Assembly (NCBI GenBank): GCA_019828565.1
Contig: JAHDYR010000053.1
Coordinates: forward strand, 1,145,044-1,209,043
Reading direction: 5' to 3'
Length of the DNA: 64,000 bases
From: Carpediemonas membranifera BICM
Taxonomy: Eukaryota; Protista; Fornicata
In this document: one piece after another, positions 9,971 to 64,000 of the stretch
Layout: each line of letters opens with the position of its first letter
Position numbering within the stretch: position 1 is the stretch's first letter
Made by a program: the position numbers and the translations under genes
The notes under the pieces: model-generated
What the model was told of the DNA's origin: nothing
What the model saw: only the letters and a program-made list of their open reading frames with translations
Databases searched by the model: none

Positions 9971-10064
9971 GCGTAGTAGCGGCGAAGTTCATCGGCAGAC
10001 AGCCCATTTCCAAGGCTGCGATGAGAGCATTCCTCACACAATGGTGCGCTTGTAATACGGCCTC

Positions 10065-13403: not shown

Positions 13404-13429
13404 AAACTCGAGCGTTCCGCCCCATAAAT

Positions 13430-14063: not shown

Positions 14064-14138
14064 TGTTGTTGGGAACGTTTATCCTTAAAATCTCCACTAA
14101 ACTCTTGCGAGTCAAACCTGACAAAACCCTCAGCTACA
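14064..14138 (-). repeat. Gy-G upstream LTR (75 bp)
   Basis: Identical to 10065-10139. Confidence 0.9.
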
Positions 14139-15327
14139 GTTGTATTCAACAAACCGGCCGGGCATGACGATGGCCGTGAGATAAATGTCTTCGGGGCACA
14201 TGGGTTGTTGGTGGAATCCTTGCTTGACGTCTGAGGTGAAGAACCACTTGGAGCCGGCCACGTCGGCGAGGAACGCCTTCGCGTCGGCCATAGGGAAGCT
14301 GTCATGAATGGTGGCTTCGTTCAGCTGGCGGTAATCTCCACATGGGCGTAGTTCTCGCTCGCCCTTCTCGTTGGGCTTCTTGCGGACGACCACGAGTGCG
14401 CTGGCGACCGGGCCATCGGCGTCACGGCAGATGCCTCGCTCCTTGAGATCGTCGAAATGGTTGTGGACCTCGCGGAGGTCATCTGGATGAAGCGGCCTGG
14501 GCTTTTGGTGTGGCGTGCGTGCGTTAGGTTTCAGTCTGATGGTGACTGGGCAGATCCGCTCCGCCCGGGTCAAAGGGGCCAAAGACTGCCTTGTGGCGTA
14601 TGATGATCGCCTTGAGCTCTTGATAGTGCGGGAAGTCGAGGTTGACGTGCACCTCGTCGACTGCTTGGGTTGCCTCGGCGTCGGCGGTGACGTCATCGAC
14701 ACGGCCTGGCGGCGTGTCATCGAGGTAGGCGTGGTCGGGGAGTCCGTCATTGTCCTCGTCGTCATCGTCCCTGCGCAGGTCAATGTGGATGCCCTGCGCG
14801 TTCATAAGGCCTGGGGTCGTGAGTATCTCCGCGCCTATAAGGACTTTGTGGTGCTGACCGCGGATGATGCTGAGTGGCTGGGCCTCGAGGGACGGCCTAC
14901 GGTCCAGGGAGGTGAGCTCGAGGTTGACCACAAGCGCGAGGCCCGTCGTGATGACCTCTTGGGACGCGTTGAGTGCCACGACGCTGGACGGTGCCGTGCT
15001 CAGAGGCACGATCTTCTGCAGTGTCGCTACGGAGCCATCGCTGATGCAGCTCACGGTGGCGCCCGGGTCGACCTTGGCTCGGGTAGTCTGGCCGTTGATC
15101 TTGACATCGATCATCAGCTCGTCGTTGACCTCATCCACGGGGTGGAAGTTGCGCTCCATCTGGCCGCCCGGACCACGGTTCCACTGCGGTGCGAACTTCT
15201 TGGTCTGTTGGGGCTTCTGCTGCTTGGGCTGAGCTTGGGCTGCCTTGGCAGGCTGGCCGCTCGTAGTGGTTGCGGGCTTGTTCGTGTCTGACCCTGCGCT
15301 TGGCGGGTCTGCGGCTGGGCTTGGCCA
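14139..15327 (-). pseudogene. Family E Gypsy fragment: gag C-terminus, protease, RT N-terminus
   Basis: Q-rich gag end WNRGPGGQMER, protease AKVDPGATVSCI, RT RPCGDYRQLN...SDVKQGFHQ...GRFVEYN, cut at the Gy-G LTR. Confidence 0.85.
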
Positions 15328-21291: not shown

Positions 21292-24200
21292 TTACTCCTC
21301 CTCCGTGGACTCCCCACTGCCGCTGCAGCTGTCCTCGGCCTGACTCGCTTGCTGTCCTTGTAGACTCTGCATTACCATGATGAACTGGGTCATCAGGTCC
21401 ATGGGTGAGATCTGCTTGGCCTTCTTATCCTTCTTGTGCTTGTGCCGGGGGATCGTGGGCTTCTCCTTGCTGGGCTTAGTCGCGGCGCCGGAGAGCACCA
21501 ACCTTCCGTGGCCTTGCTCTTGCATGAGTCGGGCAGCCTTGAGCGCTGAGATCTCTTGTTGCGCCTCTGCCAACTGCTTTCGGAGCCGCAGCTTCTCCGA
21601 GTCCATGCCGGTTGCCTGTCTGCTTCCAGACTCCCAGTCCGTGTCCTCTTCGTGCCTGCTTCTCTTTCCGCTGTCCGAGTCCATGATCCTACTCGTGCTG
21701 CCCTCCTTGCGCTTGAGCGTCGTGGAGGAAGAGTGATCCTTGCTGTTGTCCATGCCTCCCTCTGAGCCTCTACCGGCCCAGGTGTTCCCGCTGAACGAGC
21801 CTCTCATCTGCGTTCCCGTGTTGTCCTTGTCTCTCCCTGTCGTCTCCTCCGTGGTTACGATCCGAGGTCCTGTTCATGTTACCAGCTCTGTCGCCGGTTC
21901 TGTCGTCAGCTCTGACACCAGCTCTACCGCCGGCTCCGTGTCCTACCCTTCTGTCCTCTTCCCTGTCTCCATGCTGGTCGTGATGTCCTTGATCCGCGTC
22001 CTGGCCGAAGTGCCTGCCCACCATCCTGGTGCTAATCCGCCTCGCCTTTTCCCTCCAGGCCGTTGTCGAAGAACCTACTTTGGTATGGCTGTTCGGACTT
22101 TCCGTCGATGGTGGGGACATACGTGATGCCTGGGACATTGACTGTGTTGGCTCTGGGCTCGTCCGGGATAGCTGCCGAGACTAGTCTGGCCCCTTCCTTG
22201 CGCATACGGCTTAGGATGGTCCCAGCCTCGCTGACCCTGACCATGCCCCAGTCTCTCGGGATGAAGCTCGCCCCTAGGGTGATCCTACCCCTGTTCCTGG
22301 GGGCCTTGACGTTGACTATGACCTTCTCATAGTCCCTGAGGCTCTCTGCTAGGTCGTCGCAGCCCCAGACTCCTTGATGAGCCGTAGCCTCCTTCGAGGG
22401 CCACCACTCGTATAGCATGGCCATGGTTATGATGTCCTCCTCCCTTGCTGCCCCTAGGCCCTTCCTGACGCGTACCATGCGGAGCTGGTTAGCCGTGGCT
22501 CTTTCCATGATGGTCCATAGCGGGCTTCTCTCCAGTACACCTTCGTTGTCCATGATTGTGAGGGGGGCCAGTAAGATGCCCTTCATGCCCAACAGAACCT
22601 CCCCGAACCCGAAGCCGATGCCGAAGCGGTGTCCGTTGTCCGGGACTACGAGGATCCTGTCGCCGACTTCCCTGCTGACGTCCCTTGCGTCCCCGATCGG
22701 GTACGTGCCGAAGATCTCAAAGGTGTCCCTCCTTGTCGCGAATTCCGGGCCTCCCATGATATCCATGCCCGGCTCCGCCTTCCCGACTGCTTCCATGGTC
22801 TTGTCGAGTGCCTTACCCATGTAGTGGTAGACGTCTGGGGTGCTCATCCTCTCCTTGCATAGGGCCCTGATCCTGGCTGTGAAGACTACTGTATCCGCCA
22901 ACCCACAGTGGTAGCAACCCGCGGTGTGTCTGTGGTACGGACAGACTCCCTTGGGCTCGCTCCTGTTCTGCCATCCATTTGACCATGTTGTTACTGCTTC
23001 CAGGTAGTTGGCCTTGTCGAGGTTGTCCCTGAGGTTTTGGCCAGCCTCCTCCCTTGCCGTTGTTCTCCAGGATCTCTGGTAGCTTCTTCTCGTCCACCAG
23101 CCTAGCTTGGAAGAATTCCCTGGTTCCTTGCTCCAGTCCATTTGTGGGGTTCGTGAGGAGGAAGCTTTCCATCTCCACCCCCTTTGCATACATGATTATC
23201 TTCCAACCCTCCGACCTTTCGATCCTTGCCAGCTGAGCCGCCAGGCGGTTGGCCCAGTCCCTGAAAGTATGTATGTGCTTCTCATACTCGATCGGCGGCC
23301 GCCCCGTCCCGACCTCCACGAAGGTGGCCGGCGGCAGCCCCGTCACTGCCCATGCCGTGTACCTCGCTTGGTCCATGCTTGCTGCCGGTATGTCCTGGTA
23401 GTACAGGCCATGCCCATGTCCAAGAATGTCCCCAGTGCTGAGGTCAAAGAGTACGATCCCGCCCTCAACCGGGATGGCAGGGATCCCTGCCTTCTTGACG
23501 CCAGGGTCTGCGCACTCGAAGTCGATGGCTCCGATCACCAGTCGTTTCTCCTTGTCCTTTCTAGGCATCCTCGGCGGCTGACTGCTGTCCTTGTTTGAGT
23601 CGACCTCCTCGTCCTGGTCGATCTTGCCTTGGTTGGCCCCGACCATGTCCTTGTTCACTTCCAGGAGGCTGTCGTCGAGGCTTCTCCTGCCGGGCATGGT
23701 GGCCTGCTGGCGTCGTTCCTCCTTGTCCTTGACATGTTGCTCCTCGTCTCCGTCGATGACCGTGCTAGCGGACGACCTGTCCAGATCGGCATGTTCGTCC
23801 CTATTGCTGCGGACCGAGGTGGCCTTGAGCACTTCCAGCCTCACCTTCCGGAACGGCGGCTCGTTGCTAAGGGGGGTCTCCTCCCCTTCGCCCAGGATAT
23901 TGGTTCTGCCCTTCAGGTAGATCCCTGACTTGTTCCATGCTGCCTGCCATATGGCCGGGGCCTCCGGTGCCTGAAGCCTGAGGATGTCCCTAGCCTCCTC
24001 CATGAAGCGGCTGATGGACCATGCTGACGTGTCGCTTAGCTCTAGGATGACCCTGTACTTGCCGTCCTCTTGCTCGTAGGCCACTCTGGTGACCGGGCCT
24101 TGGTTTGCCGGATCCCATACCTTGTCGTAAGGCACGCCTTCTACGGCCTCGTCTCCATGAGCCCCTGATACCAGTATGAACGACCCTTCGGCCTTCTTGA

Positions 24201-24798
24201 CGCTGTCCCTGTCTACATCCCATTCGATGGGCCCATCTTCCTTCGGCTTGAGAATCGCCGTCTCGATGTCCTTCTCAGATGGCCATCTTGCCATGCCAGT
24301 GAAGCCCGCTTTCAGCGTCTTGGGCTCCAGTGCCTGTGCCATGTCCTTTGCTTCCTCGTCTCTGGGGTTGAGCGCCTCTGTGAGCATGTAGAAAAGGTCG
24401 CGGAGGCCGTGGATGCCGCATGGGTTCCTGAGGATGATGTCCTTGTTGTCAGTGACGCCGGTTGCGAAGAGGATGCGTCTGGCGTTCATGATTACTTCCT
24501 TGCGTCCTTTGGAGTTCGCATTGAGCGACTTTCCTGTAAACTTGCCTGTTCTACGAAGAAGTAGGGTCCTTGAATCGTTCCTTTCAGCGAGGAAGCTGTC
24601 CAGTAGTTCCCTGATGTCCTCCCACTGCTTCTGCGTGGAATCCCTGATCCTTGTCGGTATTTCTACCTGCATTGTTGAGTGCAAAATTTCTCCCCTTTTC
24701 CTAGTCCATAAACTGGGTCGGAATTTTTGGGTCCGAAAGTCGGGCCACATGTACATATCCGGGTGAGGTCTCCGTCCAGGCCTTCCAGTTTCTCCCAT
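21292..24798 (-). CDS. LINE-1 ORF1 (about 1150 aa when stitched) with Maelstrom/DEDDh-like domain and C-terminal coiled coil
   Basis: ORFs 22813-24798, 22032-23189, 21770-22138 and 21292-21807 are colinear with LINE-3 ORF1; IDFE...PVEG...AKGVEME...CPYH...HCGLAD. Confidence 0.85.
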
Positions 24799-30120: not shown

Positions 30121-31180
30121 TGTCACACACGTTGGCTTCTGAATCCAAGTATCGGTGTGCAAAGGGGAGCCACTCATCTTCGTTCGGGTCCGACATAATC
30201 TTCCCCAAGTTGAAGTTTAGGGTCTCGTCCCCAATCAGCCCTAAGGCTCTGAGGACGTCGCATCCAAGGAGTACCTTGAAAGCTTCCCCAGGCAGCACGT
30301 AGTACCGCCACTTGACCCTAATGGGCGCAGCCCCAATATTAGGAAGAATTATCTCCATTTCAGCCACTTGGTCTGTTGTGACAGTGCTGTTATCGCCCAG
30401 GGTTACCCTGATGCGTTCCCCTATTGACACGCTGACTGCCTCTTTTGGCAGTTTACGCAACGCCGCCTTGCTCATAAAGCTTCTAGAGGCTCCGGTGTCA
30501 ACAATGAACCGATATTGATTTTCCTTTAATACGGCGGACGTAGTCATAGGGCCTTCAGCGATAGCTGCGAGGTTAGCCTCGGCCTTCCTCTCCTCCAGCC
30601 GATGCTTTGGATGCTGGGGGCAGCGGAAGGACTTGTGCCCGTACTTCTCGCAGATGGGGCAGAAGGGGATCCCGAGCCTATTCTTGATGGGATCTGGGCC
30701 CTTAGGACCCTGGGGAGGCTGTTGAGCCGGCCCCTTGTGGGGGTGACTGGGCTGACCGCCCTGGCGCTGCCAGTTCTTTCTCTTGCCCGTATGGGCTTGA
30801 GGGCGGTCTGTAGGCTGGACATGGCCCAGGGGGGTGAACCCCCGCTTATCGAGGCGCTTGGCTGCCTTCACGGCACACTTGACAACGTCTTCGAACGAGG
30901 TCGCGCCAGTGATAGCCGCTAGGGCTCGGGTCTGTTTTTGCAAGACCGAGGGCCCTAGGCCCTTTACGAAGCACTTCCCCGCGTAGCGAGAGAAGTTGTC
31001 GCCGGGAGTACTGTCCTCAGGTAGATCTTGGAGTAGGTCGTCATCGTCTGCCAGCTTATCGAAGAGTTGGAGGCGGGTACGCACGGTGGCGGCGTGTTGG
31101 CGGGTGATGCTGAGGAGCGCGTGAGGGCCCGGGGTTGCTGTAGGGGCCTTTAGGGCGGCTAGGTCCTTCGTCAGTTGTAG
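30101..31180 (-). CDS. gag: Gy-A gag (3' part) and protease
   Basis: CPICEKYGHKSFRC knuckle, IVDTGASRSF; in frame with 37620-37856 once Gy-B and one TSD copy are removed. Confidence 0.92.
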   Translation of the reverse strand, partial: LQLTKDLAALKAPTATPGPHALLSITRQHAATVRTRLQLFDKLADDDDLLQDLPEDSTPGDNFSRYAGKCFVKGLGPSVLQKQTRALAAITGATSFEDVVKCAVKAAKRLDKRGFTPLGHVQPTDRPQAHTGKRKNWQRQGGQPSHPHKGPAQQPPQGPKGPDPIKNRLGIPFCPICEKYGHKSFRCPQHPKHRLEERKAEANLAAIAEGPMTTSAVLKENQYRFIVDTGASRSFMSKAALRKLPKEAVSVSIGERIRVTLGDNSTVTTDQVAEMEIILPNIGAAPIRVKWRYYVLPGEAFKVLLGCDVLRALGLIGDETLNFNLGKIMSDPNEDEWLPFAHRYLDSEANVCDTQEVLV

Positions 31181-31288
31181 TGTCAGCCATTTATATATGA
31201 GATACGTATTTGATACGGTCTTGATCCGTCCAGCTCGACACCCTTGTGTCGAGCTCTCTTTGTAAAGTCTTTTTCCTTAGTGATCACA
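31181..31288 (+). repeat. Gy-B 5' LTR (108 bp)
   Basis: Direct repeat of 37508-37615; TATATAT box and internal 10-bp hairpin. Confidence 0.95.
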
Positions 31289-31299
31289 GTAAGCTTACT
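31288..31299 (+). promoter_or_regulatory. Palindrome AGTAAGCTTACT at the primer-binding-site position (Gy-B)
   Basis: Perfect 12-bp palindrome starting at the last base of the 5' LTR; no TGG tRNA-type PBS. Confidence 0.85.
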
Positions 31300-31308
31300 T
31301 CCAAACTA

Positions 31309-34300
31309 ATGGATAAGGGACCTTTATGTACACAGCCTGAGATTCACGCAGTCCTCTCATTTGCCGAGAAATTGGATAAGCATGTTCGCTCGGGCGGAAA
31401 GAGGCGCTTGCTTAAGCGACTCGGACCCGCGGTGACCTCATACTGCAAGGCGATGGGTACTGATATTACCAGAAAGTATCAGGCCGCAAAACATCACGAT
31501 GATGGCTCCAAAAGAACGAAGCACGAACGCGAGGACATCGTATTCCAGGCGATTGTGGACATTGTTAAGCCCTCCGATGCGATCCTTGAGCGCCGCCTTT
31601 TCGACCTATCGACCACTGGTATCGATATTGGCCGCCTATCTCTCTATATCGACCGCTTCGCTTCCCGCCGCCGTCTCATTGCACCCACGGGCAAGGATTC
31701 AGTCCTTCGCGGCCAGTTTTTGCGCGGAATCCAAGACGAAACGCTCAGAGAGGAGGTTTCTCACGCCTCCAAGGGTCTGTCACTTGACGCGACCTTTTCG
31801 ACCGCCCTCCTGACATGTAAGCGTCTGGAGGAAGCAATCAAGCTCACTTCAACGTCCAAGCCTGCCCCTGCTCAAGAGCGCGAACGCTCTAAGCAGTCCG
31901 CTGTCCGCAAACGCCCCCCGCGTGAGCAGCGCGAGCCTCAGGATCAGCCGCGCCAAGACAAGCGGCAGCAACACCAGCCCCGCCAGTATCAGACGCACTT
32001 CCACCAGCAAGGCCAACGTCACGGTCAGCGTCAGCAGCAGACGCAACACCACGGTCACCAGCGAGACATCGTATGCTTTAACTGCGGCAGGCCGAACCAC
32101 CGCGCTTTCGAATGCACCAGAGAGAAGGCCGTGTGCGCGAAGTGCGGCAAGTCGGGGCACCTAGACAAGTTCTGTCAGGTAAACCCCAGATCATGCTTCT
32201 CTGTCTCTGTTTCTACGTCGGCGGCTGAAGGCCAGCGCTCCCTACCCGTCGTGAGTGCCGTCGTCCCTATGGGTAGCGACGAATCTACCACATGGCACCG
32301 TGTCTTATTCGACTGTGGTGCTGACATTTCTCTTGTCAACCCGGCTTCCGCCAGAGCGGCCGAGCTCATTCCGACGAAGCTCGCTGCACCCATTAAGATC
32401 AAGACTCCGGGTGGAACGATCGAGACTGATACGTGTTATGAGGTGCCGTTGAAGATGTGTAAGTCACCTTTCACCCCGAAAGGTCTATCCACCACAGTCT
32501 CCGCGTATGGGGTTGACTGTGCTTATGATCTCCTCTTGTCATATCAGACCATGGTCGAGTGGGGTATTCTCCCCAGCTTGTGTGAACCGTCTCAGTCTGA
32601 CAATGAAGACGCCTTGGAGCCTTTCGTGCCAGAGCCTGAGCCGCTCCAGGCGTATACTCTGTCTTCGGACTACACTCTCACTCATGACCGCATCCTCGCA
32701 GCTTATGCTCATTGCTTTGATGCTCGAGAAGGGTTCTCAGCATTAGAGCCATACGACCTCGTACTCAAGGAGGACCGCGTCGTCGCCACGAGATCCAATT
32801 ACATACCGTACCAGAAGCAGGGCCTGTTCGACGAGCACGTCAACGAACTACTGTCGAAGAAATACATCGAGGCCAGCTTCTCGCCATACTCTTCTCCAGC
32901 ATTGCTCGTCCCCAAGGGCAAGGACAAGACCAGGATGGTCGTAGACTTCCGCAGAATCAATGATTTGACCACGCCATTCGACTATCCGATCCCCGAGGTT
33001 AACACGTGCTTGACCAGGCTTGCTGGTGCCAAGGTCTTCGCCACTCTCGACCTCTCGAAAGGGTATCACCAGGTCGAGCTGACCGAGCGTTCTAGGCAAT
33101 ACACGGCGTTTATGACCCCCCGTGGGAAGTTCCAATACACCGGAATGCCGTTCGGCCTGAAGAACGCTGGCGCGCACTTTCAGTACGCGATTGAGCGCGG
33201 GTTCCAGGACCTCTTAGGCGACGCCTGCATTATATATATAGATGACATTATCATCTTTGGACGCTCGGAGCAGGAATATCTGGCCAACCTCGCTAAGGTG
33301 CTCCGCCGATGTGACGAGCTCAAGCTATCGTTGAACAAGGAGAAGTCGCATTTCGGCCTAGCCGAAGTGGAGTTCCTAGGATGGGTTGTGTCCGGCTCGG
33401 GTTTCCGGATTGCTCCAGACAGGATCCGCGATGTAGAAGGCCTGCGGCTACCGAAGACGAAGAAGGCCACGCAGGCCCTTATGGGATTCCTCAACTTTAT
33501 GAGAGACTTTGTTCCTAACTTCTCCGAGCTTATCCGACCGTTAGCCCGGGCGGCAAGCGGCAAGGAGGCTCCGGACGGATTACCTCAGGCAGAGGCGCTG
33601 GCCAAGGTTAAGGACCGCCTCTGCCACGCACCGGCACTCGAGCACTTTGACGTTTCGAAGGATCATGTGGTCATGACAGACGCGTCTGATCTCGGGATCG
33701 GGGGTGTTCTCCTCCAGGACGGCAAGCCGGTGTGTTATATGTCCCACGCGTTCTCAGATGTGCAGACGCGTTGGAGCACGATCGAACAGGAAGCGTATGC
33801 GATTGTCACCGCCCTCCAGAGGTGGCGCCGTTTCCTGTGCTGGACGTCGTTTACTCTCCTCACTGACCACCGGAACCTGGTCTACATGTCACGATCGTCT
33901 AACGCAAAAAGTCCAGCGTTGGTACGAGTCAATCGCAGACCTAGACTTCACAGTGAAGCATGTGGCCGGGGTTGACAACGGAGCGGCGGACGGGCTGAGT
34001 CGAGTCTTCTCCGCAACTGCCAGACAGGCAACAGCTACCGATGACGAGATCCAGGCAGCTCATATGCACGGCCAGGCCCACCTCCCGGTTTATACGACGG
34101 TAGAGTGGCTGAGATCTAACGGGCTCCGGGCTCCAGTGGATAGGGTAGCGCGGGTCATGGATCGTTGCCCCGTGTGCCAACTTACCGCCAAGCCGGCCGA
34201 GGCGTCCAGACCGTACCTCCACACGGCGAGCCTGCGACCGTTCCAGCGGGTAGCCATGGATACTATTGGCCCCCTGCCAGAGTCTCGCGGGTACAAGTTC

Positions 34301-35272
34301 ATCTTAGTTATTATTGATATGGCCTCGCGGTGGACCGAGCTCGTCCCACTCAAGTCCACAAGGGCGGACGAAGCTGTGACTGCCTTCGTCAACGGATGGA
34401 TTCTCCGGTACGGCGTGCCCAGAGTTCTACAGACAGACGGTGGCAAGCAGTTCGTCAACAAGCTATTCACAGATCTATCGGTGCGCGTAGGGTTTGCTAC
34501 TCACGTCACCACCCCGTACCATCCACAGTCAAACGGCATTGTGGAACGGGCGAACAGCCGCATTGAGCGCATTTTACGCAACAGGCAATACCAGCTTCGG
34601 AGCGAGTTGTGGTCAGACTCCCTCCCTGTCGCGCAGTATATCGTCAACGCGTCTCCCCACACCGCGACACGCTTAACACCGGCCGAGGTCATCTTCGGTA
34701 GCGATTTCCGTGTCCCGGCAGACGTGATGATGGCAGACGTCCAGAGTATGGCTGGACAGCCCAGCAGTAATGTTCAAGCAGCTCAGTTAGCCCGAGACTT
34801 GGCAGAGGCGAGAATCAAGGTCATGCACCAAGATGCGCTAGACAAAGTGTCAGCAACGACACCTATCTCGTCCGACTATGTGTTGGTCAAGTACCCGAAT
34901 GGACCGCCGTCCAAGTTGGCGTCAGGATGGCGAGGGCCTATGAAGCTAGTGCGTCCTATCGTGAGGCAGAACCTCACGGTGGGCTATGTCGTCAAGGATG
35001 TCAACACAAAGAAGGAGTTCCAAGTCGCCTCGGAGAGAGTTCGCGCCTTTATGGGTGAGTTGTCCGAGCAACGGGCTCAGGAACTCGCGGCAGTCACGCT
35101 CGGTGAATATCTGGTCGAGTCCATACTAGAGTCGACGAGTGAGGCCAGGATGAGAGACAGGAAGTTCCGGGTTAGATGGCTGGGATATGAGCCGTCAGAG
35201 GACACATGGGAACCATATGGGAATGTCAAGGGTTGTGAAGCACTGGATGTATTCCTGGGAAGGGCCAAGTAA
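31309..35272 (+). CDS. gag-pol: Gy-B gag-pol single ORF (two CCHC knuckles, PR, RT, RH, IN, chromodomain); one frameshift in an A5 run at about 33908
   Basis: CFNCGRPNHRAFEC, CAKCGKSGHLDKFC, LFDCGA, YIDD, TDASD, TDGGKQF, YLVESIL...FRVRWLGYEPSEDTWEP. Confidence 0.95.
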
Positions 35273-35301
35273 ATGGCGCCCAGAGAGAGTCACAATCTGA
35301 T

Positions 35302-36630
35302 TTATTCAATGGCACCAAGGCTGTCACCAAGCTCAAAGAAGATGCCGTCATGCTCCCAGCGCCGACGAACACGACGCCATAAGTTATGCTCGTTGAGATA
35401 ACGAGTGACAGGCATGGTGCGGCAAAGATCCTGGGTCAGGAAGGTCAGTGACGGCAGCGGATAGCCCGAAAACTGGACGAGCAGGATGAACGACTCCTCC
35501 TGGCGGGCGTTCTCGTAGAGCTCGATGTGCTCTTTGACCTCCACCACACCGTACGCGGCGGACGTGTCCGTGAGCTGGAGCGTGAACAGCTCCTTGTTCA
35601 TGGCAAGCTCCATAGCCGGGAGATGCTCAAGCCGGACACAGGTCCAATAGGCCCGAACGAAGTCGCGGGAGCGGGTGGCGGTCAGGCGCGAGGCACCGCG
35701 GTTCTCAGCCGCCATAAGCAGCGAGAACATGGCTGGGTGTCGGCCTGCCATCACCACGCGCTTGAGGAGGTCCACCACCACATCACGAGAGACCGTGGCA
35801 CCCGGCTCTCGAGTGCGCTTCAGCGCCAGGAGGGCTCCCTCAGCTGTGGCGACGTGGTTTGTGGCAAACCGGTCGCTCGTCCCGCCCTGGACCAGAGCCG
35901 CGGCTACGGCGCGAGTGTCTTGGACACCCTCCATGGAGCGCTGGAGAGCGCACCCGATGGCCGTCACCTCCGCGAACCGACGAAGGATGTCGGCAGAGAC
36001 GTAAGCAGCCGTGACCTCGGTCATAGCGCTGCCGAAGAGCTTCCCGGTCTGAACTCGGTCGAGGAGGGCTGTGAAATTGACTTCGAAGCAGTTGGAGAAG
36101 CGAGCAGTGCTGATCTCCGCAAAGGTGGTGCGGAAGGTCTCGACCTGACGCTGCTCGCGTGCCGGAAGAGGTTCGGCGGGCTCGGTCGGCTCGGCGACGG
36201 TCACAATAGCCCTAGGGGTTTCGACATTGGCGCGGTAGCGGGTCTGTCGGTGGAATGGGCGGACAGGGACCTCTACGACACGCTGGTTGAACTCAGCGCC
36301 CAGCTCACTCGTGCGGGTGATTGTGGTCTGAGCAGATTCGGGATGGCAGTCGGTGATGTGCCGTCCGGAGCGTCGAGGTCGGAGAACGGTGCGATCGGGA
36401 GCTGAACCAGCTTCTTGGTGCGAAATGGCATCACCATCGGTGTTCTCAGCGGTGTTTTCAGTGGATGGAGGCGTGTGAGAACCTTCAGTAGCTTCCTGGG
36501 AGCCGTCACCATTCAGCAGCTCGACATGCTTTCGCTTCAAGGCCTGAAGATCGGAGATGAGCACACCAGTAGGATTGGCCGTCATATACTGGTCGATTGC
36601 AGCAAAGAGTTCCTCCTCTACGTTTGTCAT
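35302..36630 (-). CDS. Gy-B antisense accessory ORF (about 442 aa) with C-terminal chromo-like domain
   Basis: Uninterrupted ORF inside the LTRs, homologous to 62427-63249 in Gy-D; TATATAA about 55 bp upstream; stop within AATAAA. Confidence 0.8.
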   Translation of the reverse strand: MTNVEEELFAAIDQYMTANPTGVLISDLQALKRKHVELLNGDGSQEATEGSHTPPSTENTAENTDGDAISHQEAGSAPDRTVLRPRRSGRHITDCHPESAQTTITRTSELGAEFNQRVVEVPVRPFHRQTRYRANVETPRAIVTVAEPTEPAEPLPAREQRQVETFRTTFAEISTARFSNCFEVNFTALLDRVQTGKLFGSAMTEVTAAYVSADILRRFAEVTAIGCALQRSMEGVQDTRAVAAALVQGGTSDRFATNHVATAEGALLALKRTREPGATVSRDVVVDLLKRVVMAGRHPAMFSLLMAAENRGASRLTATRSRDFVRAYWTCVRLEHLPAMELAMNKELFTLQLTDTSAAYGVVEVKEHIELYENARQEESFILLVQFSGYPLPSLTFLTQDLCRTMPVTRYLNEHNLWRRVRRRWEHDGIFFELGDSLGAIE

Positions 36631-36896
36631 AGCGCCGTTTGAAATCTGGGAGGCGTCCCAGATTTGATTTACATGTATACATGAGTTATATAATCTCAGG
36701 AGGACACCCACCGCGCAAGTTACAGACGCTGAGCACGCCTGTATAGCCAATACTGGCCAAGGGACAGCCGTTCACGTATTCTCTCGCGCGTTTTATGCCG
36801 AGACGAGATCTCGAGGAAAAGGGGAAGAAAAACACCTCCAAGAAGTGATAATGGACAAAGTTTATACGAAGAACGTGGTTTTGATGTTGGTTATTC

Positions 36897-37094
36897 ATGA
36901 TGGAGCTCGTATTCTGGGCACAAGAAGTCCGAGCGGAGACGAAGAGAAGAAAACTCCCGTATCTCGCCAAGGAAGCGGAATTGGAGCTAGTTAACTGCAT
37001 TTTTGAAGCCTATGTAAGAAATAGCGGAAGAGGAGCACAAACCGCCAACTATTCCGAATCAAGCCGAATGCATGACATAACCTGCACGGTTTGA
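36897..37094 (+). CDS. Gy-B small sense ORF or exon with conserved PxLxxE...FExYVR motif
   Basis: The motif recurs at equivalent positions in Gy-C and Gy-F with synonymous changes. Confidence 0.5.
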   Translation: MMELVFWAQEVRAETKRRKLPYLAKEAELELVNCIFEAYVRNSGRGAQTANYSESSRMHDITCTV

Positions 37095-37507
37095 TGCAAT
37101 CAGACAGAACACTGGTATGTATCGACTACTAGGAGGGGCAGGATCCCCAGGTAAGATACCCATGACACAGCGCGCTTATTTAGTGGTACCACGAGTCTTT
37201 TCGAATCTGTAGAATCTTTGCGCAATCTAGAAAATCTTTAGAGAATTTCCGTGGGTGGACTCCACGCCGGGCGATGGCTTAGGACGCTATGTCGTCAGCC
37301 TAGTCAACGGATACTATCCGGCGTACACGCAAGTCCCGTGTGCGCGACGGTCAGCCCTCTAAGTTGAACTTAGTTGGCATCCCCGGATCACTGGTCATTC
37401 CCCAGCGATCGACGGTTATAGGGTCAGCACTCTTGGGCTGTTCCCCCAAGACCTGATTAACAATGGTATCCTTTTCGTGATGCTCTTAACAGAGCATGGG
37501 GGGGAAG

Positions 37508-37615
37508 TGTCAGCCATTTATATATGAGATACGTATTTGATACGGTCTTGATCCGTCCAGCTCGACACCCTTGTGTCGAGCTCTCTTTGTAAAGTCTTTT
37601 TCCTTAGTGATCACA
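37508..37615 (+). repeat. Gy-B 3' LTR
   Basis: Identical to 31181-31288. Confidence 0.95.
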
Positions 37616-37619
37616 GTAG

Positions 37620-42502: not shown

Positions 42503-45500
42503 CTACTCTCCTTCCTTCTCCTCGTCTCTCTTCCTTCTCAGGTCAGACCTGAAGTTATCCATCTTGGCTGCTAGGGTGAAGCTGAGGGCTTCGTTGGTTG
42601 CCGAGAGTCGGGCCGCGCGGCTGAGTAAGTCCTCGTTCTCTTCGGTTAGAGACGAGCACTTCTCCGTTGTCTTCCTGAGGTCCTTCCGCATCTCGTCCAA
42701 CGCAGCTTGGGCTGCTCTCCGGGCTTCCCGTTCTTCCTCCAGCTCCTGGCTTTTGGCCTTGAGCTCGTTGATGGTTCTGGCTGCAGCTTCTTCCAGCTGT
42801 TGTCTGACCTCTGCTTCTCGCCGGGCCATGGCTTGGTCCAGCAGGGCCGCTATGCCTCTGCCCAGGTCGGTGTCCTCCTGTCGTGCTCTTTTTGGGCTGC
42901 AGGTCCTCTTGGTCCACCTGTCTGACCTGGCGGGTCTTGGCTGATGGGTTGGGGGTATGGGGGGGCACAGCTCTTAGTTGGAGGGGGCCCGGGCTCTGTT
43001 CGCTCTGTCCTGCTACTTTGCGGTTGTTCAGTGACAATTTGCCCGCGTGGAGGGCCATATAGGCCCCCTATGCCGCCATTCGGCAGGTAGACCTCCGTCC
43101 TCCTGTGAAGCATCTTGGCGAGTTCAGTAGCCCTTCGTCTCACCTTTGTTCGAAGCGCCTGCTTCCTCTCGGTCCTCAGTCTGTTCTTGGCGTTAGTGCT
43201 GGCGCCTTCCGGGAAAACACAGTTCAGCGTGTCCCATGGCTTCCCCCCTTTTGGGTGTTCCACGCCTGAGCCCGCCAGGGCGAGTTTGCCTATCCAGGAG
43301 GCGCTCCTCAAGGTGCCCACTCGCCTCTTCCCTCTTTCTGCTGGTTCATCCGTGATACCCCAGTCCCGGGGGAGGAACGAGGGGAGGAAGTTGATGGAGC
43401 CTGTCTCCGGGTCGACACACATGTTGGCCAGGAGTTCTCGATCGTCGGCTGGGACCTCCGTGAAGTAGTTGAAGATCTTCTTCCTGGCTTCTCTGCCCAT
43501 GTGGCCTCCAGCTATGTCGAATTTGTGGACGGGCATCAAAGACGCCGCTTGGGATAGGGTCATCGTTTTGGTGTCGCTGACGTCTAGAGTAAGCATCTTT
43601 TCCGCGTCTATTTCCGTGGGCTCCCCCTCAGGTTCGCCCAAGGGAAACCGTCTTGGACAGCGCGGCGGCGCCCGTTCCACTCCGAGTGGATTTCCAGGAG
43701 GATGGGTCGCGCTGGTTCGCCTACTCTCGCGAGCGATTCTGGGTTTCCGATGATCACGGCTGTTCCTTCCAGGGCTCTGGTGATACCCTTTCCGGAGCTG
43801 AAATCGTTTTCCTCCCAGTTGGTCATGATAATCTGGCCCCGTTTGGGGTTCTTGGTGCCAAAGAGGTTGACTTGTTGGGACAATGGGGTTAGGCGACCGG
43901 CCGCCACGGTGCCGGGGCCGTGTCTGGCGTTGACTTTGGTCGCCAGGTCCTTGTATTCATCATGGTACGGCGACTCCCCTGCCCATGAGCATGCTTCCTA
44001 GGGCTGTGAGGTGGGCTTCTACCTGCCCCCAGTCCCAGCCTAGGTTGTCTCTCATCCAGAACGCTGTTGCTAGTCTGGCGTAGAATATGGAGACATCTGC
44101 TAGGGCGCAGTGGCAGTGGTGGGGTGCGTGCTTGTGATAGGGGCACACCACTTTTGCCTCCGGGCGCTGTTGGTACCTTCTGGTCCAGGTCCGGCCCAGT
44201 TCGGACTGGGGTCGGGAGGGGAGGCCGGTGAGGCTCTTCTCCCCACTATTGGGGTAGAACCAGGTCAGCGTGTCGAGGATGTTGGGGAAGATCGTGTTGA
44301 GGTCAGTTTCATCCATGAGGCGTAAGCTTAGCCAGGTGCGGAGGTTCCCGTCTGGGACGAACTTCTCACTGGTCAGGATGCTTCTCTCAGCCTCGACTCC
44401 CTTAGCCACGATGTGGACGTGGGTCTTCTGTGGCCCCGAGTCGTCTTCCAGTCTCTTCAGCTCTGTAGCCATCTCGGTGCACCATCGCTTGGCGTGGGGG
44501 AAGTCTGCTTCGTATCCCTTGGGGGCTTTGCCCGTGGTGTCGTCGACAAACGTAGCTGGTGGGCAGCCATGGATGTAGTGCGTGACCCACAGACATTGGT
44601 CCAGGGTATCCACTGTGATGTCTTCCCCAAGCATCCCGTGCATGTAGTAGAGGATTTGCTCGTTAGCTGGGTCGAAAATCAGTGCCGCCCCTTCGCAAAT
44701 GATGGCCTCGTCTCCTCGGTTGGATCTGGCTCTTCCTTCCTCAAAGTCCACCATAGCGATCAACTGCCTGGTGGTGTTGGCTCGTTGGGTGATATTGGAA
44801 CGAGGCGGGCTAGCTCCCATGTTGGGCCCGCATGTGCCCTTGTTTGGCGTGGTGGGTGTGTCATCAGGGCCGGAAGTCCTGCTGCCGCTCGGGCCCAGGG
44901 GGGTTTCTTCTTCGTTAGTACCCAGGGCTCCATGAGATGCCCCGTCCCGTACGGGCTCTATAACTTGGGTCTGCCCCGTTGTGAGCCAGTAGTTAGTGAT
45001 GTTGCGCGTCAGAAAGGAGGCAGACACCAGTTCGCGGGCAATCCTCGCGGGTGGGGGCCAGAGACGCCTGGTCTTATCCCATGCCGACCAGAGTTCGGGG
45101 AAGCCGGGGACTGACCACCGTTGGATGAGGTCTCTGACCTCCTCCCTCAGGTCTGCCTCTGCTGCCGAAGGCTCTTCTTCCAGGGGTGGGGGTGGGAAGA
45201 CTGGCCTCATCACACCCCTCGGTTCTGCTGTAGATGAGGATCTCCTCGACGGGGCCCTGGGTCCAGATCTGGATGGGCGTGCCGTCTGGTCTGCGGAAAC
45301 CTCCCTCCGGGGGGTGAGGGGCGTGGTAGCCTTGCCCTTTGGCTAGTTCCCGGCCTAGGTCGGCCCAGAGCTTCTTGTTTTCGCGTCCTAGTGAGGGGGA
45401 GCCCTCTGGCTGCAGCTCCCGCGGAGATGGCGTGTCCGGCGGCATGGAGGAGCCACATTGCAGCCTCCATCCCGTACTTGGTCTGGATGCCGTTGCCTGA

Positions 45501-48305: not shown

Positions 48306-49404
48306 TGCCGGCCATGACAAAACCAATCTGGATGTTGGAATTACATGTTCGAATTGGGCAGTCTCGCTGAGTTCTGCCTGTCAACCACTGCTGGGATTAT
48401 GACTGTGGTACAACCATTAACTGGCATTACGTCCCGCAACCCATATCGGGAATTACGCTTTTGTTCTTGAATCGTCCCGTCGGACAATTGTGTGGTGATG
48501 CACGTGCTGCGTTAGAGGTTCCTGTGTTATCATGGGACTGTCCCTACCCCCCACGGACGTTGAGACTCCGTAACTGGGGAATTATACATGTTACGTTTGA
48601 CGTAGATAAATGCTGGAGGCCATAGCACCGGTGATCGAGTTTGTTCGTTCTGCTGCGCTGATTGGCGCTTTTCTTACATAGGCTTCGAAAATGGCCATGA
48701 GAGGCCTCAATTCCTCTTCGTTGTGGAGTTCTGGCCCTTTTTTGCATCGCGGCGTTTGTATCGGTGTGACGGGCAGGGGACAGGAACACCGAAGGGAAAC
48801 GATGAACTAACTTTAAATTGACTTTGACGATCATTGACCAATCATAAAAGAACTGATTGGGACAGCTAACACAACGTGACACTGCCTCCATGAGTGGGCA
48901 TAGGCCGTCTATGTTCGTAGGGGGTTCAATTGGGGTCGCCATTCGGCCCCTCATCAATTGATTCAGAAGGATGGTGGTGAACTCGCATGGTGGAAAATCT
49001 GTCCGGATACACGCAAAATCATACAACGAACCGCTAAGTAACTAATCAACATCAATATTCTTGAACGGCGTCGTGTTCCGCATCATTCTCAACGCAAAGC
49101 ACACAATACAAGAGCCGCACTTGCAAATCTGCGGTTTCTGCCTCCGCAATGAGAGATGTGGAGTATTATTAAGTAGATGACGACAACTAGAGAGCTTTAC
49201 GGGCGCTCTTCATCTTCTTGAGCAATTGGGGATGCTCAGCAAGATAGTCGTCAAGGGCAGCGAGCTTGTCGAGGTCTCGGGTATAAGGCTCCCAAGTTGC
49301 CTCACTATCGTCGTAGCCGTGCCAGAGCACGTGGAATTGGAGGTTCCTCTGCCTCCAGCGGTGGGCGTCAACTCCTCGGACGACATACTCGTTGTGCAGG
49401 CGGG
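48306..49404 (-). mobile_element. Gy-C 3' internal region and integrase chromodomain end
   Basis: EYVVRGVDAHRWRQRNLQFHVLWHGYDDSEATWEPY (49187-49404), then about 0.9 kb of 3' region contiguous with the PPT/LTR at 26772-26880. Confidence 0.8.
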
Positions 49405-49601
49405 TGTAGTCAATATTAATATCTACCAATATCCCTGGGAGGGTCCAAACCTCTTTTTACTCGTAAACTCTTTCTCTTCCAAACCACAGTACTAGTACTT
49501 ACCTATGGGTAGAGAACAGAAAAAACAAGCGCCGCTCCTGAAAGAGGCAACATTCAGCGCTTTCGTAGCTTTTACGACGTCACTGCGTGACTTTAAGGCT
49601 A
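49405..49601 (+). mobile_element. Gy-I 5' end: 84-bp LTR (49405-49488), palindrome, gag start (ATG 49505); gag resumes at 58029 after LINE-3
   Basis: TG...CA segment interrupting Gy-C integrase. Reconstructed gag MGREQKKQAPLLK...RDFKARGGKAKLRKLISPEIQSY aligns with the Gy-B gag N-terminus. Confidence 0.8.
49488..49499 (+). promoter_or_regulatory. Palindrome AGTACTAGTACT at the PBS position (Gy-I)
   Basis: Perfect 12-bp palindrome between LTR end and gag ATG. Confidence 0.8.
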
Positions 49602-57100: not shown

Positions 57101-57497
57101 GGCGCCGTTCTTCGTCCTCTCTCGGGTCTAAGGCCTCTGTCATTGCGTAGAAGATGTCTCGAAGCCCTAGGATTCCGTTGGGGTTACGGAGGATCTCGTC
57201 TCTGTTGTTGGTGATCCCTGCGGCACGTAGCACTCTCCTCGCATTCAGTATCACCTCTTTTCGTGCTCTGGAGCTAGCTCCGAACGATCTCCCTGAAAAA
57301 TCTTCTGCGCGACGCAGTAGTAGCGTTCTGGTGCCCTTCTCTTCCATCAAGTAGTCCGTTAGTAGCTCTCTAATCGTGTCCCACTCTTTTGAGCGGATTC
57401 CCTGATCTTATCTGGTATCTCCACTCTCATCTGGTTGTTCTCTTTTCCCTGCATGAAAAAGCTTGGCAAATGCATCGACGCGAAAATCGGTCAGCAT
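54150..57497 (-). CDS. LINE-3 ORF1 (stitched) with Maelstrom-like domain
   Basis: ORFs 56241-57350, 55897-56247 and 54150-55979; IDFE...PTEG...VTGIPP...AKGVHME...CPYH...HCALAD. Start approximate. Confidence 0.85.
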
Positions 57498-58394: not shown

Positions 58395-61300
58395 ATGACT
58401 GAGGACAAGGGTCCGTTATGTACTCAACCAGAGATTAATGCTCTGCTTTCGTTTAAGGAGAAACTCGATCGCCATGTCCGAACGGGCGGAAAACGCCGAC
58501 TTATCAAGCGTTTGGGTCCGGCTGTCACCTCATACTGTGCAGCAGTTGGTATAGACGTAGCCAAGACATACAAGAGCGCGAAGCACAACACAGTGACGGG
58601 CGAGAAGCGTAAGAAACATGAGAGAGAGGACCTCGTTTTTCAGAGCGATTGCTAACGCAATTAAGCCCACTGATCCGATCCTAGAGCGCCGTCTTTTCCA
58701 GCTAACGACCCAGGGTATTGACGTGGGACGTCTCTCACTCTATGCCGACAGATTCATCAGCCGCAAGGCCGTCTTGGCTCCCTCTTTCTCCGACGCCGTG
58801 ATGCGCAGCATGTTCGTGAAGGGAATCCAGGACGAGGACCTCCGTAGGGAAGTCAAGGAGGCGGCTACAGGGCTTGACCTTAACAGCACCATCCAGGTCG
58901 CTCTCCAGACGTGCAAGCGTCTCCAAGAGGCTGCGATGATTACTTCCAGGACCATCAAGTCCGATTCTCAGCCTCGAAACCGCCCTCCTAAGGACCAGCG
59001 CGCAAGCCATTCTCGAGGTCTGCGCCGACAGGGCGGCCCGCCTCACCCGGGTGAGCACCAGTCTCATGGCAAGCACCAGTACCGGGGAGCCCAGTCTGAA
59101 ATGCAGAGAAGTCAGCAGACCGGCTCAAGCACCGATCATCAGAGCACCAGCCGTACCATCGTGTGCTACAACTGCGGCAAGTCCGGTCACACATCGCGCC
59201 AGTGTCGGAACCCGAAGACTGTCTGCAGCAAGTGCGGTAAGCAGGGACATCAAGACAAGTTCTGTCGGGGTACTTCAGTAAACCCCCAGGCTTGTTCATC
59301 CTTTTCTCGTGCACCCGCTCATGTCCTGACATCGTTGAGTCAGACACACAGCAACGCGCTCCCGATAGTAACAGCAGAGGTTCCGGTCGGTAATGATCAC
59401 AGTGTGCAATGGGAGCGTGTACTTTTCGACTGCGGGGCGGATATTTGCTTGGTGAACCCCCAGTCGGCAACCGCTGCTGAACTTATTCCGACGAAGCTCA
59501 GTCAACCTATCGTCATCAAGACTCCAGGGGGATCTATTGAGTCCGACGTTTGCTATGAGATTCCCCTTCTCATGCATAAGTCACCTTTCACTCCAAAGGC
59601 ACTGTCGACTACTGTCGCCGCATACGGAGTTGAATGCATCTACGACCTTCTATTGTCGTACCCAACGATGGTTGAGTGGGGCATCCTGCCCAGTGTCGCG
59701 GAATCTCAAGCGAGCCGGGACTCTGACGATATGGAACCGTCCGTCCCCCCAATGGACGCGATGCAGTCCTACACTATGTCAACAGATTTTACAGCGATGC
59801 ATGCGCGAATCATCGCCAAGTTCAGCCGTTGCTTCGAGGAGCGTGAGGGGTTTTCTGCCTTAGAGCCTTATGACCTGATCTTGAAGGAGGACCGAGTAGT
59901 AGCGTCCAGGTCAAATTACATCCCTCACCAGAAGCAGGGTCTGTTTGATGAGCACGTCCGGGAGCTGTTAGCCAAGAAGTATATTGAGGCGAGTTTCTCT
60001 CCGTACTCGTCTCCAGCTCTCCCTCGTCCCGAAGGGCCGAGACAGAACTCGTATGGTTGTCGATTTCAGAAGGATCAACGACCTGACTGAGCCGTTTGAT
60101 TACCCGATCCCAGAGGTTCAAGCGTGCCTCGCACGGTTGGCAGGAGCTAAGATCTTCGCCACGATTGACCTTTCGAAGGGTTATCATCAAGTCAAGTTGT
60201 CCGAAAGGTCGAGACAATACACTGCGTTCCAGACCCCACGAGGCAAGTTCCAGTATACGGGCATGCCGTTTGGATTGAAAAACGCTGGGGCGCATTTCCA
60301 GTTTGCAATTGAACGGGGATTCCACGATCTACTTGGTACCGCGTGTATCATATATATTGACGACATTATAATTTTCGGCCGCACAGAGCAAGAGTACTTG
60401 TCCAACTTGAACAAGGTGTTGGCGAGGGCCGAAGAGTTGAAACTCAGCCTCAACAAGGAAAAAGTCACACTTTGGACTCGCAGAAGTCGAGTTCTTAGGC
60501 TGGGTGGTGTCGGGTACAGGATTTAGAATTGCGCCAGACCGCATTCGGGATGTTGAGACGCTGCGTGTCCCGAAGACGAAGAAGGCCGCTCAAGCCCTAA
60601 TGGGATTCTTGAACTTCATGAGAGATTTTTGTGCCAGGTTTTTCGAGGATCGTGCACCCTTTAGCTCAAGCCGCGTGTGGCAAGGCACCTCCCGACGGCA
60701 GCGATCAGGTCGAGGCTTTGGCGCAGGTCAAAGATCTGCTGTGTCAGGCTCCCGCCCTCGAACACTTCGATGTTACCCGTGAGCACGTCGTCATGACTGA
60801 CGCGTCAGACCTTGGAATTGGCGGAGTGTTGCTACAAGACGGTAAGCCGGTGTCATACATGTCCAAGTCTTTCAACGATGTGCAGACGAGATGGAGCACA
60901 ATTGAACAGGAGGCGTATGCAATCGTTTCCGCGTTGCAGAGGTGGCGCAGGTTCTTGTGTTGGACACCATTCACATTGCTGACTGATCATCGCAATCTTG
61001 TGTTTATGTCGCGTTCTTCCAACTCCAAGGTTCAACGGTGGTACGAATCAATATCTGATCTTGATTTCACGATCAAACATGTGGCCGGAGTGGATAACAG
61101 TGCAGCCGATGGTCTCAGTCGCGTGTTTGCGGCATCGGCAGATCGGTTGCCAGTGGCGTCTGAGACGGAGATAGCTGAGGCACACAGACACGGGCAAGCT
61201 CACCTGCCACTGCATACCACGATACAATTCTTGAGGACACATGGCAAGAGGGCGCCCGTGGATCAGGTGGCGAGGGTGATCGACAGATGTCCGGTATGTC

Positions 61301-62401
61301 AACTCACAGCAAAACCAGCTGAAGCCGCCAGGGCATACTTACATACAGCCGGACTCAGGCCGTTCATGAAGGTAGCAATGGACACTATCGGTCCGTTGCC
61401 CGAGTCGCTCGGATACAAGTTCATTTTTAGTAGTAGTCGATATGGCTTCGAGGTGGACCGAGCTCATTCCGCTGAAGACAACGAGAGCCGACGAAGCTGT
61501 CAGAGCATTTGCTGACCAGTGGATACTCAGGTATGGAGTCCCTCGAGTCCTCCAAACAGACGGAGGCAAGCAGTTTGTCAACAAGCTGTTCAAGGACTTG
61601 TCCGTCCGAGTTGGCTTTTCAATCCATACAACCACTCCATATCATCCACAGTCAAATGGAGTGGTCGAACGAGCGAACAGCAGAGTCGAGCGTATTCTGA
61701 GGGCGCGGCAGTACGAGCTGAGGTCGGAGCTGTGGTCGGAGTCGTTGCCAGTTGCACAGTACATTGTCAACGCGACACCACACTCAGCAACGCGTTTAAC
61801 CCCAGCAGAGGTGATTTTTGGTAGTGATCTGCGCGTACCGGCCGACATGCTAATCGTCAAAGAACTGGGTGAGAAGGCGGTCAGCCAACCAGCGAGCAAC
61901 GTAGCTGCTGCCAAACTCGCTCGAGAGCTCGCTGAAGCACGTATTAAGGCAATGCACGCTGACGCTCTCAGCAAGTTGCCCCCTCCTGAACCAATTACGT
62001 CTGAGTTTGTATTGGTCAAATACCCGAATGGGCCACCATCAAAGTTGGCTGCAGGGTGGCGAGGCCCCATGCAACTGATCCAGCCTATCATGAGGAATGA
62101 CTTTCCTGTTGGTTACTGGGTTAGAGATGTCAATACGAGGACCGAATTCCAGGTCGCGTCCGAGAGGGTCAGACCATTTTCAGGCGAGCTGTCCATGCAA
62201 CATGCCCAAGAGCTAGCAGCAGTGACGATCGGCGAGTATGTCGTGGAGTCGATATACGAAGCAACGCATGAGCGCAGACTCAGCGATCGGCAGTTCCACG
62301 TCCGATGGGCAGGGTACGAGCCTTCGGAAGATACGTGGGAGCCGTACCAGAACGTTAAGGGATGCGAAGCGTTGGATATATATCTGGGGAAGGCCGAATA
62401 A
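58395..62401 (+). CDS. gag-pol: Gy-D gag-pol with chromodomain; about five frameshifts in homopolymer runs
   Basis: Two CCHC knuckles, LFDCGA, YIDD, TDASD, TDGGKQF, YVVESIY...FHVRWAGYEPSEDTWEP. Confidence 0.93.
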
Positions 62402-63249: not shown

Positions 63250-64000
63250 TGTGGTTTGACTATACCTGTTTTACTGGGGGAAAAGACTTCGACACAGGGG
63301 TGTCGAAGTCAATCCATAAATGTTCTTAAATTGTACTGACTGACACTGCCCCTCCATGCTCAACTGACTTGAGTATGAATAACTTGTGCCGGTAGGCCTC
63401 ACAGGGGAAAGCCTGTGCTAACCTACTTCACCGTTGGCGGCTGGGGAATAGCCCAGTGCCCGGGAAGGGTACTCTGCCTTAGCTCGGTAACCCTTGCTTC
63501 ACCGTCGCTAACTGTGGGTAGCACAGCAGCCGGAACACCGTTGACATACTCTTACTGCCACGTAAGGGTGTCCGGTACAACCGTAGTTGTTCTGTGGTGA
63601 CGTATCTCCAAATTGATTGACTCAGAATTTCGTGGTACCACTGTGTAAGTATTGCGTCATACGCTCAAGGGTTAGTCTTACCCGGGCTTACCGCCCTCCC
63701 ACGGGCCATTACTGGGCCGTATGGTCGTCGATTAGTTCATTCGGATCCTTAAAATGCACAAATGGCTTCAGTTCGAAACCACCATGGTATGCGGCCTTGA
63801 AAGCCCTCATTCTTACATAGCGTTCGAATAACGCCTCTAGAGGCCTCAAAGCCTCTTCGTTGCCGAGATATGGCCTTTTTTGCTTTTCTCGTTCGTCGAC
63901 AGTTGGGACGCCGCGAATATTGCTCTATAACACTAACAACATCAGTATTCGTCTCATAGACGTATAAATATCGTGATTTTTGCGGACTTATCGTCCTCAA
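63250..64000 (-). mobile_element. Gy-F 3' end: 96-bp LTR (63250-63345), PPT, 3' internal region
   Basis: TG...CA segment with the TCGACAC-N4-GTGTCGA hairpin, PPT GGAGGGGCAG, and the FExYVR motif shared with Gy-B and Gy-C. Confidence 0.8.

Follow-up and report, generated by a model that had tools for sequence, protein, structure and literature searches.

Antisense open reading frames situated between pol and the 3' LTR (aORF-3R) have been described in several Ty3/gypsy retrotransposons, i.e., gene23 of maize Grande and the corresponding frames of rice RIRE2, Silene Retand and bean PvRetro13 (PMC7264820; PMC11963269, excerpts). The GENE23 protein of Grande is nuclear and its gene has its own promoter; no function is known for the antisense 3' genes of LTR retrotransposons (PMC7264820). 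Elements of this type belong mostly to plant non-chromovirus lineages and their antisense products present Transposase_28, SMC, plant mobile domain or DUF domains, whereas the gene studied here had no Pfam match. An antisense gene in the same position of a non-plant Ty3/gypsy element is brtn, from the Boty-like elements of Botrytis and Sclerotinia (as cited in PMC7264820 and PMC8365987); searches with our antisense family found no brtn-like match. The REXdb table of eORF domains, as excerpted, contains no chromodomain (PMC6317226, Additional file 4; domains with E<=1e-10 in at least 5 elements), and the ORF3s of rotifers are enzymatic (PMC5408684, excerpts). A literature search, with subscription papers outside its scope, found neither this Carpediemonas family described nor any antisense accessory ORF with a chromodomain. 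Antisense 3' genes are already known, and a chromodomain-bearing one is new as far as that search reached.

We studied a stretch of 64,000 nucleotides of Carpediemonas membranifera DNA (the window), in which retroelements form a nest with a few host genes among them. One of these elements, Gy-B (31181-37615), is a chromodomain-bearing Ty3/gypsy element in which LTRs, a target-site duplication and a polypurine tract are present, and its domains follow the order gag-PR-RT-RH-INT by Pfam. A chromodomain lies at the integrase C-terminus, as in chromoviruses. As in aORF-3R elements, an antisense ORF was found between pol and the 3' LTR; the same arrangement occurred in another full-length element from outside the window, L001 (PPCM01002278.1), and, weakly, in Gy-D, near the right end of the window. 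The features of Gy-B were as follows:

31177..31180 (+) and 37616-37619: left and right copies of the target-site duplication GTAG
31181..31288 (+): 5' LTR, 108 bp, TG...CA, same sequence as the 3' LTR
31309..33975 (+): gag (zf-CCHC), protease, RT and RNase H, by Pfam
33758..35272 (+): integrase frame (rve) with C-terminal chromodomain; stop within AGTAAA
35105..35269 (+): first, canonical chromodomain, on the integrase (PF00385, E 4.4e-8; E 2.1e-9 for the Gy-D counterpart); cage Y/W/Y
35273..35301 (no strand): gap of 29 nt between the converging stops
35302..36630 (-): antisense accessory gene, 442 codons, 442 aa; stop within AATAAA
35386..35562 (-): predicted second, divergent chromodomain, residues 357-415; predicted cage Y360, F387, Y390
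35596..36138 (-): conserved core, about residues 165-345, without known family or fold
36526..36630 (-): N-terminal segment common to Gy-B and the homologues P0045/P0049 (see below); ends ALKRKH, then a variable linker
36642..36665 (-): perfect 10-bp hairpin, 11 nt upstream of the antisense ATG
36685..36695 (-): TATA-like AT-rich stretch upstream of the antisense ATG, candidate internal antisense promoter
37492..37615 (+): polypurine tract and 3' LTR (the LTR itself 37508-37615)

With identical 108-bp LTRs and a 4-bp target duplication, Gy-B is a young element. The nearest named relatives of its integrase were C. membranifera proteins (63% and 45% identity). Its coding region has a frame break near 33930, ahead of the integrase frame, where L001 has a single frame of 1344 codons; the break is either an assembly error or a mutation, and assembly indels are plausible because breaks occur likewise in Gy-D and apparently in a long unannotated host gene at 383-2468 (+). 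Neither in Gy-B (31289-31298) nor in L001 is the 5' LTR followed by a TGG primer-binding site. Gy-B, Gy-D and L001 each have short palindromes just 3' of the 5' LTR, and in Gy-B a search of the post-5'-LTR sequence against the LTR for self-priming matches of at least 6 bases found none. A TCGACAC...GTGTCGA hairpin is common to the LTRs of Gy-B (31232-31255), Gy-D (58320-58343) and the element inserted into Gy-D (63287-63312). Three elements of the window share a non-coding block of about 75 nt in the same element-relative orientation, at 36950-37021 (+), 48670-48741 and about 63810-63883 (71% identity between the first and second copies, 80% between the second and third); it lies about 470-490 nt ahead of the 3' LTR in two of the three and is possibly a packaging or promoter signal.

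Other elements surround Gy-B. A gypsy element at 10064-14305 (-) has identical 76-bp repeats, a weak integrase chromodomain (E 4.8e-7) and a pol stop that overlaps the 3' repeat, leaving no space for an antisense gene. At 49190-49456 (-), 450 nt from the non-coding block shared with Gy-B, a frame matches the chromodomain family PF00385 (E 1.3e-8) and lacks an upstream integrase core; it is either the remnant of another chromovirus or a stand-alone gene. In three LINE-like elements (22032-24798, 43960-45210 and 54150-57347; negative strand), the upstream ORF combines a Cys/His motif with an acidic D-F-E motif, and two copies align at 30%; Pfam confirmed endonuclease and RT in the LINE-like element at 50-54 kb. 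The motifs of the upstream ORF presumably recall the DEDDh nucleases of Maelstrom or arenavirus NP, a reading to which Pfam and PDB sequence searches gave no support. A host cyclin was found at 7499-8587 (+) (Cyclin_N, E 1.3e-12).

The antisense ORF of Gy-B is real and conserved. As the initial annotation had proposed, a long frame converges on pol: in 1000 mononucleotide-shuffled versions of the stretch from pol to the LTR, open runs extended to at most 314 codons, and none (0/1000) reached 442. The family showed no similarity to gag. An env or env-like ORF3 was rejected, in agreement with the annotation, given the antisense strand and the lack of a hydrophobic N-terminus or clear transmembrane segment (the best 19-residue Kyte-Doolittle mean was 1.04-1.57 in four antisense proteins). 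The conserved core is probably helical; a single-sequence fold prediction over 292 residues gave a pLDDT of 37, which is low confidence. ALKRKH is a possible nuclear localisation signal. An AT-rich stretch and a hairpin precede the antisense ATG in both Gy-B and L001; the L001 hairpin lies directly ahead of the ATG and is unlike that of Gy-B in sequence.

The annotation had also placed the antisense stops 25-30 bp from the pol stops, each within AATAAA. The measured stop-to-stop gaps were 29 nt in Gy-B, 25 nt in Gy-D and 34 nt in L001, and both antisense stops of the window lie in AATAAA, as claimed, with the pol stops in AGTAAA (Gy-B) and AATAAA (Gy-D). All six converging stops of the three elements are embedded in A[AG]TAAA. 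Among the 100 open frames of at least 150 codons in the window, 24 end in TAA; the stops of four are embedded in A[AG]TAAA, and those four are the converging ones, with no others among them. Moreover, the AATAAA at the Gy-B antisense stop is the sole copy on that strand of the element, and it is likewise the sole one per element in Gy-D and L001. Dual-use stop/poly(A) hexamers with median UTRs of 11-24 nt have been reported in protists including Giardia and Naegleria (PMC11529991, in whose excerpts Carpediemonas is unmentioned). By analogy, the converging A[AG]TAAA stops resemble these metamonad signals, and the 29-nt gap of Gy-B would provide space for two very short 3' UTRs.

A HMMER search with the Gy-B antisense protein against 1.84 billion representatives gave two matches. 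The first, P0045 (C. membranifera J8273_6937), matched with E 1.4e-30 and 32% identity over query residues 24-292 and shares N-terminus, core and C-terminus with Gy-B; the locus tag of an integrase, P0002 (J8273_6925), is 12 lower, and the contigs of the two proteins are equal in length. A profile search added P0049 (J8273_5620), mostly a near-copy of P0045 on a different contig. The second match, P0046 (E 2.5e-6), was located in L001, one of 58 candidate stretches. Other searches yielded nothing further: a word-index search with the Gy-B antisense protein (0/7995 candidates), the Atlas (no usable match for Gy-B; P0045 gave leads only below 0.9 or with TM below 0.5), PDB sequence searches with queries A2 and A5 (chance-level matches, best E 0.082 and 0.12) and BFVD (no match at E<=0.001). 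Locus scans were equally negative for the integrase in metagenome contigs (0/100 stretches) and for A2 in genome contigs (0/36) and viral contigs (0/38).

The layout of L001 is the same as that of Gy-B: a gag-pol of 1344 codons with a chromodomain, flanked by matching LTR copies (75 bp, 100%), and the antisense homologue, with the two converging stops in AATAAA and AGTAAA. As it stands, the L001 antisense gene is in three frames. Removal of two segments, one of 29 nt (GTATGT...ACTAACCCAG) and one of 28 nt (GTTCGT...CAG), gives a stop-free frame of 391 codons. Aligned with Gy-B, this frame continues over the second junction, where two residues are gapped (core score 165, 0/300 shuffles); exon 1 by itself gave no significant alignment, and exon 2 aligned more clearly with P0045 (0/300 shuffles) than with Gy-B (18/300). 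For the two segments there are 19 and 9 GT-AG options, respectively, that would repair the reading frame, and assembly indels are frequent in the window. The first intron chosen is the option with metamonad-type signals; small introns with GTAYGT/ACTAAC or pyrimidine-rich ends are known in metamonads including C. membranifera (PMC1201135, excerpts). These candidate introns, together with the stop-embedded A[AG]TAAA, suggest that the antisense gene has a separate transcript; lying on the antisense strand, such introns would be retained when the genomic RNA is reverse-transcribed. BLASTn alignment of the 3' regions of Gy-B and L001 found no match.

The relation with Gy-D was less clear. The relevant features are:

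58618..62401 (+): Gy-D gag-pol in four frame pieces, with the integrase chromodomain (62234-62398) at the end; stop within AATAAA
62427..63249 (-): Gy-D antisense frame, about 273 codons, 5'-truncated; weak family match
about 62496-62663 (-): candidate chromo-like part of the Gy-D antisense frame; cage positions F/Y/C
63250..63345 (-): 96-bp LTR of another, oppositely oriented element, polypurine tract on the high side; interrupts the Gy-D antisense gene

A gene length of 207 aa did not hold for the Gy-D ORF: the frame is open for about 273 codons to about 63249, where it is cut by the foreign LTR, so Met 63050 is probably internal. Nor did the direct alignment of the Gy-B and Gy-D proteins stand, since its score (41) was equalled in 125 of 1000 shuffles and the best BLASTP E-value was 4.6; what remained was weak profile support. 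When a profile was built from the cores of Gy-B, P0045 and L001, the best non-self match among 1238 six-frame segments was Gy-D (E 0.086), and hhalign against this three-member profile scored 23.9 over 130 columns (0/200 shuffles); a search with the whole-protein profile put Gy-D in third place (E 1.3). On these profile matches the Gy-D antisense frame is a probable distant member of the family. The interval 63250-64000 belongs to a different LTR element that was inserted into Gy-D, and is the 3' end of it. This interval contains an intron-like segment 3' of an ATG (63891-63945, +), which may belong to an antisense gene of the inserted element that extends past the window.

Identities between Gy-B and Gy-D were 76% for integrase, 49% for gag and 28% for the antisense core, the last in a forced alignment for which shuffled-codon controls gave 28-31%; between L001 and Gy-B they were 53%, 27% and 32%, respectively. 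The earlier statement that the antisense proteins are far more diverged than gag-pol is thus correct for Gy-B against Gy-D but not against L001, where core and gag are conserved to a like degree. Since integrase is closer between Gy-B and Gy-D than between Gy-B and L001 and the antisense similarity is clear only for the latter pair, the pattern suggests that the antisense cassette was swapped between lineages, or changed faster in Gy-D. The pS values were 0.70-0.84 in all real pairs, and the antisense-core pN/pS of 0.65-0.76 compares with 0.73-0.90 in three shuffled controls at saturated pS; dN/dS is uninformative because synonymous sites are saturated. The Gy-B antisense protein is conserved relative to P0045 and L001 beyond this synonymous saturation. 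It is very improbable that the ORF is a mere passenger without function for the element, be it a shadow frame or a remnant that was captured or inverted. In favour of that reading, dN/dS is inseparable from the alignment controls, the mirrored plus-strand frame is partly open (35623-36405) and homologues were found in a few sequences only. Against it, the open frame, its start, its stop context and the protein sequence have all been retained at a divergence where synonymous sites are saturated and the flanking DNA is not alignable, and candidate introns lie on the antisense strand of L001.

The initial annotation recognized a chromodomain pattern in the C-terminus of the antisense protein and proposed structure prediction as a check. 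Pfam assigned no family to any antisense protein tested, the PF00385 gathering threshold not being reached, and an HMM built from 32 of 47 integrase chromodomains gave a best E of 0.18 on the antisense proteins. Profile-profile comparison aligned residues 357-416 with the integrase chromodomain profile (HH score 24.3, probability 40%, 0/150 column shuffles), and the unselected whole-protein profile found the same place with an HH probability of 11%. As a control, 30 of 32 integrase windows scored at most 14.5, and the two over the chromodomain scored 19.6 and 20.3. AlphaFold, with four family members as its only input and neither templates nor known chromodomains, produced a model of three strands and two helices, the first helix short (pLDDT 73, pTM 0.63; pLDDT 49-62 in the other four models). 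Foldseek matched this model with chromo-type proteins in 37 of 38 rows (best E 0.083), and in VIA, run against 48,161 chains, the first 39 of the best 50 rows were chromo-type (best Z 5.6, where the tool's "distinctive" level is 8). Among the matches, GEN1, eEF3, New1, cpSRP43 and ZMET2 are chromodomain carriers. The support lies in the agreement of independent methods and the uniformity of the matches, since no single score is strong. The pattern seen in the annotation is in this way borne out by prediction: the Gy-B antisense C-terminus is predicted to adopt a chromo fold, a three-stranded sheet followed by a helix, like solved chromo domains.

The best structural matches (7-24% identity) were the chromo and chromoshadow domains of HP1/Swi6 (PDB 9cea, 2rso, 7vrf and 3g7l; Z 5.2-5.6, rmsd 2.3-2.8 over 52-56 residues in the VIA rows). 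HP1/Swi6 is organized as CD-hinge-CSD, whereas the Gy-B antisense protein presents one C-terminal chromo-type domain behind an unrelated core. With the HP1 positions Y24, W45 and Y48 as reference (PMC3350952, excerpts), profile alignment placed the cage at Y360/F387/Y390 in Gy-B, Y/Y/Y in P0045, Y/F/Y in L001 and F/Y/C in Gy-D. The annotation's altered aromatic cage was therefore right in part: the near-invariant Trp is replaced by Phe or Tyr and the TWEP strand motif is replaced, but all three sites remain aromatic in Gy-B, P0045 and L001. Gy-D has Cys in place of the third aromatic and, alone, did not match the chromodomain profile. The antisense domain resembles the Group I integrase chromodomains (MAGGY, Tcn1) in predicted fold and in its three aromatic cage positions (PMC3350952, excerpts), and differs from them in residing on a separate antisense protein, in the change of the middle Trp and in the loss of TWEP. 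Group II plant chromodomains, in contrast, keep the Trp and lose the first and usually the third aromatic (PMC3350952; PMC6317226, excerpts). By profile, the antisense domain is weakly similar to the integrase chromodomains of its own clade, and a 79-column match of the antisense family that includes the integrase linker and chromodomain was weak (E 0.065). On this sequence likeness, the most likely source of the second chromodomain is an integrase chromodomain that was duplicated.

Given the homologues, the same layout in L001 and the predicted fold, the proposal of a conserved accessory gene with a divergent chromodomain is sustained, and, irrespective of its role, the ORF is very probably a functional accessory gene whose product has a chromo fold. 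For that role, our main reading, to which we assign a probability of roughly 40%, is that the antisense protein is a trans-acting chromatin reader that counters the silencing of element copies. The second gene, antisense behind pol, would be expressed from its own promoter just upstream of the ATG, its transcript spliced in L001, and polyadenylation would occur at both converging stops, with little overlap between pol and antisense mRNAs, while the genomic RNA would read through to the 3' LTR. The protein would be imported into the nucleus via its basic N-terminal motif, where the predicted chromodomain may bind methylated-histone chromatin on the element's own copies, and it would either sit on the mark, acting as a decoy for HP1-like readers of the host, or recruit an activator through the helical core. 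A diffusible, separate reader would suit regulation better than targeting, because the integrase already carries a canonical chromodomain with a full cage. The VANC proteins of the Arabidopsis VANDAL DNA transposons are fast-evolving anti-silencing factors that act in trans; the likeness is a functional analogy only, VANDAL being another element class. A fuller version seems doubtful to us: an integrase chromodomain duplicated into a stand-alone spliced antisense gene whose product is an HP1 mimic that lifts silencing, with stop/poly(A) signals that end the gag-pol mRNA at its stop, separate translated from genomic RNA and avoid dsRNA, and with the cassette swapped between lineages.

Among the alternatives, all of them unlikely, we rank first an integration cofactor, whose chromodomain would tether the pre-integration complex to a mark or host protein unread by the integrase chromodomain. 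The predicted chromo fold would fit, chromovirus chromodomains serve targeting, as that of the MAGGY integrase does by binding H3K9me2/3 (PMC3350952, excerpts), and the elements sit in a dense retroelement nest. However, the integrase cage is complete (Y/W/Y) in all three elements, antisense divergence does not track integrase divergence, and the product of a separate mRNA would not be packaged with Gag-Pol by default. Next comes a chromoshadow-like or other non-reading chromo fold, i.e., an adaptor that binds protein or nucleic acid and reads no methyl-lysine. The top VIA row was indeed the HP1-alpha chromoshadow domain (Z 5.6), chromoshadows also occupied Foldseek ranks 4 and 5, and the losses of Trp and TWEP and the Cys of Gy-D point the same way; but the HP1-alpha row is tied with chromodomains, Z differences below 1 being ties, and three of the four members keep the three aromatics, whereas most shadow domains lack Y24 and Y48 (PMC3350952, excerpts). 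Behind these two we place a self-limiting factor that would compete with the integrase chromodomain or help to silence copies and so restrain copy number. The weak likeness to the integrase linker and chromodomain would fit a competitor, and antisense units have been proposed as negative regulators of transposition (PMC7264820), but tail-to-tail poly(A) signals would minimise RNA overlap and the gene-bearing elements appear to have been active recently, the LTRs of Gy-B and those of L001 being identical.

Carpediemonas-like protists lack ORC and Cdc6 and are for that reason expected to use alternative silencing mechanisms (PMC8516963, excerpts; further host background in PMC5874029, excerpts). 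A predicted reader fold with three mutable cage residues makes the function of the antisense gene directly testable, and the antisense chromodomain would serve as a heterochromatin probe in these organisms. If the pol stop does contain a poly(A) signal, Gy-B and its relatives would keep mRNA and genomic RNA apart by a means that is unusual among LTR elements.
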